This document shows, piece after piece, positions 55,112 through 55,409 of a stretch of DNA of 64,000 nt. Source of the DNA: Escherichia coli. Lineage in GTDB: Bacteria > Pseudomonadota > Gammaproteobacteria > Enterobacterales > Enterobacteriaceae. The DNA lies in NCBI RefSeq assembly GCF_051903065.1, contig NZ_CP178438.1, one strand, 5' to 3'. Position numbers and translations under genes: made by a program. Within the stretch, counting starts at the first letter, position 1. Each line of letters starts with the position of its first letter. The notes below the pieces were generated by a model that was not told the origin of the DNA, searched no databases, and saw nothing but the letters and a program-made list of their open reading frames with translations.

Positions 55112-55188
55112 CGCGGGGTGGAGCAGCCTGGTAGCTCGTCGGGCTCATAACCCGAAGGTCGTCGGTTCAAATCCGGCCCCCGCAACCA
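55112..55188 (+). tRNA. metZ: Initiator tRNA-Met (fMet), copy 1
   Basis: CGCGGGGTGGAGCAGCCTGGTAGCTCGTCGGGCTCATAACCCGAAGGTCGTCGGTTCAAATCCGGCCCCCGCAACCA; CAT anticodon, 1:72 mismatch and three G-C pairs in the anticodon stem; the copy-to-symbol assignment follows K-12 order. Confidence 0.97.
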
Positions 55189-55221
55189 ATTAAAATTTGA
55201 TGAAGTAAAGCAGTACGGTGA

Positions 55222-55298
55222 CGCGGGGTGGAGCAGCCTGGTAGCTCGTCGGGCTCATAACCCGAAGGTCGTCGGTTCAAATCCGGCCCCCGCAACCA
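55222..55298 (+). tRNA. metW: Initiator tRNA-Met (fMet), copy 2
   Basis: Identical 77-nt sequence, 110 bp downstream of copy 1. Confidence 0.97.
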
Positions 55299-55332
55299 AT
55301 CAAAATTTGATGAAGTAAAAGCAGTACGGTGA

Positions 55333-55409
55333 CGCGGGGTGGAGCAGCCTGGTAGCTCGTCGGGCTCATAACCCGAAGGTCGTCGGTTCAAATCCGGCCC
55401 CCGCAACCA
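55333..55409 (+). tRNA. metV: Initiator tRNA-Met (fMet), copy 3
   Basis: Identical 77-nt sequence, 111 bp downstream of copy 2. Confidence 0.97.

Follow-up and report, generated by a model that had tools for sequence, protein, structure and literature searches.

The metZ-metW-metV initiator tRNA array in an Escherichia coli chromosome and its copy-number variation

The window, a stretch of 64,000 nucleotides of E. coli DNA, carries three identical initiator tRNA genes in tandem. The feature is almost certainly the metZ-metW-metV (metZWV) operon of E. coli, with one sigma-70 promoter and one intrinsic terminator; no observation contradicts this reading. The locus is already known; it is a textbook housekeeping locus in E. 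coli and has been described for decades. The observations presented here comprise the genes with their initiator identity elements, the anatomy of the operon, its synteny and a copy-number polymorphism with exact unit boundaries. Positions are collected in Table 1. The initial annotation had read three identical tRNA-Met genes with a period of 110-111 bp at 55112-55409. ARAGORN, Rfam and a letter-by-letter comparison agreed with this reading, and the coordinates were exact.

Table 1. Features of the metZWV locus and overlapping open reading frames in the window.
Feature	Position	Strand	Description and evidence
mltA (murein transglycosylase A), divergent left neighbour	53806-54903	-	ATG at 54903, 365 aa; RefSeq, K-12 and near-identical strain
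mltA ORF as called	53806-55185	-	459 aa = 365 aa + 94-aa extension; ORF list
94-codon 'N-terminal extension' of the mltA ORF	54904-55185	-	TTG start inside the antisense of metZ; ORF list
A8 tract just upstream of the -35	55061-55068	+	read from sequence; same in K-12
-35 hexamer TTGCAT of the metZWV promoter	55071-55076	+	read from sequence; shared with K-12 and four further strains
-10 hexamer TATAGT (Pribnow box)	55093-55098	+	16 nt after TTGCAT; read from sequence
GC-rich discriminator and short 5' leader	55099-55111	+	GCGCTTCCACGGA, up to the mature metZ 5' end; alignments
metZ, initiator tRNA-fMet1 gene	55112-55188	+	77 nt, CCA encoded; ARAGORN, Rfam, cloverleaf fold, identity elements, K-12 annotation
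Internal transcribed spacer metZ-metW (ITS1)	55189-55221	+	33 nt, ATTAAAATTTGATGAAGTAAAGCAGTACGGTGA; same as K-12; predicted unstructured
metW, initiator tRNA-fMet1 gene	55222-55298	+	same sequence as metZ; ARAGORN, Rfam, sequence comparison, K-12 annotation
Internal transcribed spacer metW-metV (ITS2)	55299-55332	+	34 nt, ATCAAAATTTGATGAAGTAAAAGCAGTACGGTGA; one A more than K-12
metV, initiator tRNA-fMet1 gene	55333-55409	+	same sequence as metZ; ARAGORN, Rfam, sequence comparison, K-12 annotation
Intrinsic terminator	55416-55445	+	8-bp stem and 4-nt loop (55416-55435), then UUUUGUUUCU; terminator scan, RNA fold
ORF across the antisense of metV, metW and the metZ 3' end	55167-55469	-	100 aa, ATG start; repeated peptide WLRGPDLNRRPSGYEPDELPGCSTPRHRTA; ORF list
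amiC (N-acetylmuramoyl-L-alanine amidase), convergent right neighbour	55484-56737	-	RefSeq annotation

Over the full 64 kb of the window, ARAGORN called three tRNA genes and no more, all tRNA-Met(CAT) on the plus strand. Each of them scored 61.4 bits against Rfam RF00005 (gathering score 29). The three genes are the same letter for letter over 77 nt, and three perfect 77-mers cannot have originated by chance. Tandem Repeats Finder reported a single array at 55110-55411 with a period of 110, 2.7 copies and 98% matches. The gene starts lie 110 and 111 nt apart because the spacers have 33 nt and 34 nt. Within the window, ITS1 and ITS2 differ by one substitution and one extra A. Their minimum free energies of 0 (ITS1) and -0.8 kcal/mol (ITS2) predict unstructured RNA. 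The array had been described as perfect direct repeats. This holds for the tRNA bodies with 2 nt on the 5' side (GA) and 2 nt on the 3' side (AT) only; it is too strong for the full 110-nt units, which are about 98% alike.

The identity of the tRNA was read from its bases after placement on the standard tRNA numbering, with 17a. The anticodon CAU occupies standard positions 34-36 (ARAGORN reports cat at gene position 35). C1 stands opposite A72, which leaves no Watson-Crick pair at 1:72. The cloverleaf is the minimum-energy fold of the tRNA, with nucleotide 1 unpaired. The D stem contains A11:U24; this purine11:pyrimidine24 pair is a defining feature of initiator tRNAs. G2:C71, C3:G70 and A73, the formylation determinants of initiator tRNA, are all present. 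The anticodon stem has three consecutive G:C pairs, G29-G30-G31 with C39-C40-C41, and the three G:C pairs are named as the determinant of P-site selection (PMC3017606). The gene also has G46 and an encoded CCA end. Judged by these bases, the window genes encode a bacterial initiator tRNA, and the copies are assigned to the fMet1 type because of G46.

A tRNA caller had been expected to recognise three initiator tRNAs. ARAGORN called three genes with the label 'tRNA-Met, anticodon cat'; this label leaves initiator, elongator and tRNA-Ile2 undistinguished, and the initiator type comes from the identity elements. An elongator tRNA-Met, or a tRNA-Ile2 with a lysidine-modified CAU anticodon, would fit the label but is very improbable. 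The unpaired C1xA72, the three G:C pairs 29-31/39-41 and A11:U24 are the bacterial initiator signature and speak against both. So does the sequence, which is the same as that of K-12 metZ/W/V, annotated as initiator, and of the tRNA1-fMet of PMC3017606. Initiator identity elements and K-12 identity together effectively refute the elongator tRNA-Met and tRNA-Ile2 assignments. The initiator identity given in the initial annotation is thus supported by C1xA72, G29-31:C39-41, A11:U24, G2:C71, C3:G70 and A73, and by the match to K-12 metZ/metW/metV in sequence and position. For the identical K-12 molecule, formylation and P-site use in initiation are established (PMC3017606).

E. coli has a further initiator tRNA gene, metY (tRNA2-fMet), upstream of nusA-infB. 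It encodes the same tRNA species with the same function, but it is a single gene at another locus outside the window and has A46 in K-12, in contrast to G46 of the window genes. Kapoor et al. describe metZWV as three identical tRNA1-fMet with m7G46 and metY as tRNA2-fMet with A46; metY of E. coli B has a sequence identical to tRNA1-fMet (PMC3017606).

The genomic context agrees with this identity. A megablast search with positions 54700-55800 against 5,426 complete E. coli genomes matched the locus in 5,425 of them. The annotated order at the matched loci is mltA, three tRNA-Met genes and amiC, and the locus confirms that the window is the E. coli chromosome around mltA-amiC. K-12 MG1655 carries metZ (b2814), metW (b2815) and metV (b2816), noted as "tRNA-initiator Met(CAU)". 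All three 77-nt genes, both promoter hexamers, spacer 1 and the terminator are identical to those of K-12, as are the neighbours mltA and amiC. It differs at 3 positions in the 579-nt mltA-amiC intergenic region, by one substitution and two single-base indels: a T for A at 55103, an extra A in the 5' A-run of spacer 2 (34 nt versus 33 nt) and, on the 3' side of the terminator, an A-run (about 55453-55459) that is longer by one A. The 34-nt spacer 2 is also present in strains MS10711, PEC1021 and E69. Strain 23CRST027 matches the locus at 100% but is a different strain: its identity to the window is 99.96% from 9036 onward, and the CRISPR region differs.

The metZWV promoter was recognised by visual inspection and by its identity to the K-12 promoter treated in PMC3017606. 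A simple consensus promoter scan of 54800-55600 found nothing. It missed the promoter because the -35 hexamer is weak; TTGCAT has three of the six bases of TTGACA. The A8 tract may be UP-element-like, by analogy with known rRNA and tRNA promoters. Kapoor et al. obtained promoter-down mutations in the -10 box of metZWV and just upstream of it, with primers that contain 'gagtatagtgcgcatccacgga' (PMC3017606). The same study cites a down-regulation of the promoter by ppGpp. Position 55103 is a T in the window and an A in K-12 and four other aligned strains. The exact 61-mer with this T was found in only 57 complete E. coli genomes. The T could affect stringent control or the choice of the start site.

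At the other end of the operon, the terminator hairpin has a predicted stability of -11.1 kcal/mol (z-score -4.35; 0 of 200 shuffles were as stable). A scan of the metZWV spacers found no promoter-like or terminator-like site. Spacers without such sites, together with a single promoter and a single terminator, are consistent with one transcription unit. Co-transcription of metZWV is taken from the literature on K-12 (PMC3017606).

This anatomy suggests a path from the operon to translation initiation. Transcription from the sigma-70 promoter (TTGCAT, 16 nt, TATAGT, GC-rich discriminator) would yield one tricistronic precursor that ends at the intrinsic terminator. Processing of the precursor would release three mature initiator tRNAs with CCA already encoded, as the anatomy and the K-12 literature suggest. 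After aminoacylation and formylation, tRNA-fMet would enter the ribosomal P site and translation would start. The supply of initiator tRNA would be set by gene dosage, with three metZWV copies and metY elsewhere. In experiments by Kapoor et al., the initiator-tRNA level tracked the gene copy number (PMC3017606). The triplication may therefore be viewed as a gene-dosage device. Deletion of metZWV removes most of the initiator pool and causes slower growth and cold sensitivity, and a lower initiator abundance relaxes the fidelity of P-site tRNA selection (PMC3017606). Because the 77-nt bodies are identical and 110-111 nt apart, whole units can be gained or lost; unequal homologous recombination or replication slippage would remove or add them.

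Copy numbers were compared across strains in two ways. An even-step sample of 60 of the 5,425 megablast-matched genomes contained 53 with three copies, four with two, two with one and one with none, the last being an artefact. A 73-nt query across the tRNA-spacer-tRNA junction only was then searched in the complete genomes and matched 10,248 junctions; these lie in 5,193 genomes, none of which has more than 6. BLAST coverage does not separate the alleles (overlapping pieces are joined), and the junction counts are bounds and not an exact distribution. Read in this way, they give three copies in about 5,055 genomes (~93%), two copies in at least 138 genomes and a single copy or an unresolved locus in up to 232. 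One- and two-copy alleles account for no less than 2.5%, and for perhaps as much as about 7-10%, of the complete E. coli genomes. A few genomes may have more than three copies.

Two reduced alleles were inspected by alignment. The two-copy allele of strain T2 has an intact leader and trailer and one K-12-type (33-nt) spacer 2. The one-copy allele of YZ22PE106 consists of leader, tRNA and trailer only. Both are exact losses of whole units, deletions of the 110-nt and 220-nt class. Exact unit losses are what is expected from unequal homologous exchange or slippage between identical 77-mers. The two-copy state was seen in two independent O145:H28 assemblies, which argues that at least some of the copy-number variation is real and inherited. 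Repeat collapse in public assemblies, and not biology, may account for some of the reduced-copy alleles.

The proneness of the array to copy-number change by recombination, proposed in the initial annotation, is supported by these whole-unit deletions and by published work on Salmonella. The Salmonella metZ-metW pair is also a tandem initiator tRNA array, in which changes in copy number compensate fitness. Its amplification was seen in actinonin-resistant fmt/folD mutants and compensated these mutations, according to the summary of Nilsson 2006 in PMC11721125. The Salmonella pair differs from the window array in having two copies in the representatives and an unrelated 28-29-nt spacer. Published fitness data agree as well: fewer initiator gene copies are a disadvantage in rich medium and an advantage in poor medium (Samhita 2014, cited in PMC9981150).

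Short tandem repeats are sometimes mis-assembled. In ST648 (NZ_CP008697.1), a 'complete' genome with an apparent zero-copy metZWV, an 'N' lies exactly at the array site; the repeat is unresolved in this assembly, not naturally deleted. An assembly or duplication artefact in the window sequence, with no real feature behind the triplication, has nevertheless a negligible probability. About 93% of the 5,426 complete E. coli genomes, K-12 MG1655 among them, have the three copies with the same spacers, and the array also occurs in Citrobacter, Klebsiella and Atlantibacter species. The population data refute the artefact reading.

One- and two-copy alleles could be lineage-fixed adaptive states that tune the initiator supply to slow-growth niches, as opposed to neutral variation or assembly noise. 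A lost unit removes one spacer, and the dose of RybB/MicF-binding ITS would therefore fall too. That an AAGCAGTA-like motif recurs in several Enterobacterales genera whose spacers otherwise diverge would then be due to selection for this second function. We consider this combination of adaptive alleles, co-falling sponge dose and a selected motif unlikely; even if correct, it would only extend what is published. The copy-number polymorphism over 5,426 genomes is a small quantitative complement to the published fitness experiments and leaves the understanding of the locus unchanged.

Open reading frames over the array had been noted as spurious products of the triplication on both strands. The two ORFs concerned, 55167-55469 and the N-terminal extension of mltA, exist and are artefacts, not genes; the mention of both strands is wrong, since the two lie on the minus strand. 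On the plus strand, no ORF of at least 20 aa overlaps the array. The repeated peptide in ORF 55167-55469 results from reading the antisense of tandem tRNA genes. Both minus-strand ORFs are open over 94-100 codons and have start codons (ATG, TTG), as real coding sequences would. Yet a coding function is highly improbable. Pfam gave no significant match for ORF 55167-55469 (best 18.9 bits versus a cut-off of 22) and no match for the 94-codon mltA extension. Neither ORF is annotated by RefSeq in K-12 or in the 99.96%-identical strain. As antisense of tRNA genes, the 100-aa ORF would also shrink by whole repeat units in two- and one-copy strains. For annotators, the antisense of tandem tRNA genes is a warning: it creates long false ORFs and, here, a false 94-codon extension of mltA. 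On the other side of the array, the amiC ORF is open over 447 aa (55484-56827, minus strand) from an upstream ATG. RefSeq places the amiC start at 56737, which gives 417 aa and lies just ahead of the twin-arginine signal; the longer ORF is a mechanical extension, as at mltA.

Tandem arrays are not restricted to E. coli. A scan for tRNA-fMet tandem junctions in one genome per species (100,044 species) found them in 106 stretches, with 2-4 copies. Besides many Enterobacterales, the carriers include Exiguobacterium, Rhizobium, Ralstonia, Selenomonas and Ferrimonas. Among Enterobacterales with the same 77-nt tRNA, and with the reservation that draft assemblies may under-count, two copies were present in E. 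albertii, E. whittamii, Salmonella and Dickeya, three in E. coli, Citrobacter, Klebsiella spallanzanii, Atlantibacter, Edwardsiella and Xenorhabdus, and four in Tatumella saanichensis. The E. coli-type spacer, chiefly its 3' part AAGCAGTACGGTGA, is conserved in Escherichia, Citrobacter, Klebsiella and Atlantibacter. Spacers that have otherwise diverged share a recurrent motif with GCAGTA in Escherichia, Citrobacter, Klebsiella, Atlantibacter, Tatumella, Edwardsiella and Leminorella. Nearly all examined Gram-negative spacers end with GGA or GTGA just before the 5' end of the tRNA.

The spacers are known from a second context. In K-12, both metZWV spacers co-purify with the sRNAs RybB and MicF (PMC4583644). 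Lalaouna et al. 2015 describe them, together with 3'ETS-leuZ, as tRNA-spacer sRNA sponges. ITS1 of the window is identical to that of K-12 and ITS2 has one additional A. RNAduplex placed the 5' end of RybB (nt 1-16) on the 3' half of the ITS, with energies of -16.6 and -19.0 kcal/mol. These energies were matched by 13% and 5% of shuffled spacers, those of MicF by 26-42%. The RybB duplexes are thus barely better than those of shuffled spacers and MicF is no better, so that the duplex computation neither adds to nor detracts from the published RybB and MicF pull-down.

The 3' flank of the array varies among strains. Of the 5,425 complete E. coli genomes, 1,964 (36%) lose their similarity to the window 1-9 nt 3' of metV (55410-55418). 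In the first of two inspected examples, the metV-amiC interval contains a type VI secretion island (tssB, tssC, tssK, tssL, hcp, tssH, vgrG), at 12711-24721 of the extracted locus. The second carries a 5.5-kb PTS/sugar module in the corresponding interval, at 12711-18274 of the extracted locus, with genes for a phosphoglycerate dehydrogenase, a SIS protein, MalY/PatB, a PTS EIIC and a PRD regulator. Both insertions bring their own terminator-like hairpin. The window has no accessory DNA 3' of metV; metV is followed directly by the K-12-type terminator and amiC, as an empty site. The locus is a known hotspot where units are gained and lost and where about a third of strains carry accessory DNA on the 3' side of metV.

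Some observations were made elsewhere in the window. A CRISPR array is located at 8977-9554 on the plus strand in the ygcE-queE interval. Its ten type I-E-like repeats of 29 nt (CGGTTTATCCCCGCT[A/G]GCGCGGGGAACTC) follow one another every 61 nt. The reference strain has no annotated cas genes in the corresponding region of window length. At about 7520-9500, the content and length of the window differ from the otherwise 99.96%-identical 23CRST027. An inverted repeat pair of about 135 nt, 82% identical, lies in the barA-gudD (25592-25720) and tcdA-mltA (53609-53745) intergenic regions and is probably a repetitive extragenic element. The copy at 53609-53745 contains a match to the Rfam sRNA ES036 (CssrF) at 53642-53684 on the minus strand (46.5 bits). 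Two further sRNA genes are full-length and at their expected E. coli positions: CsrB at 31882-32241 on the minus strand (384 bits), adjoining syd, and GcvB at 50422-50627 on the plus strand (199 bits), adjoining gcvA.
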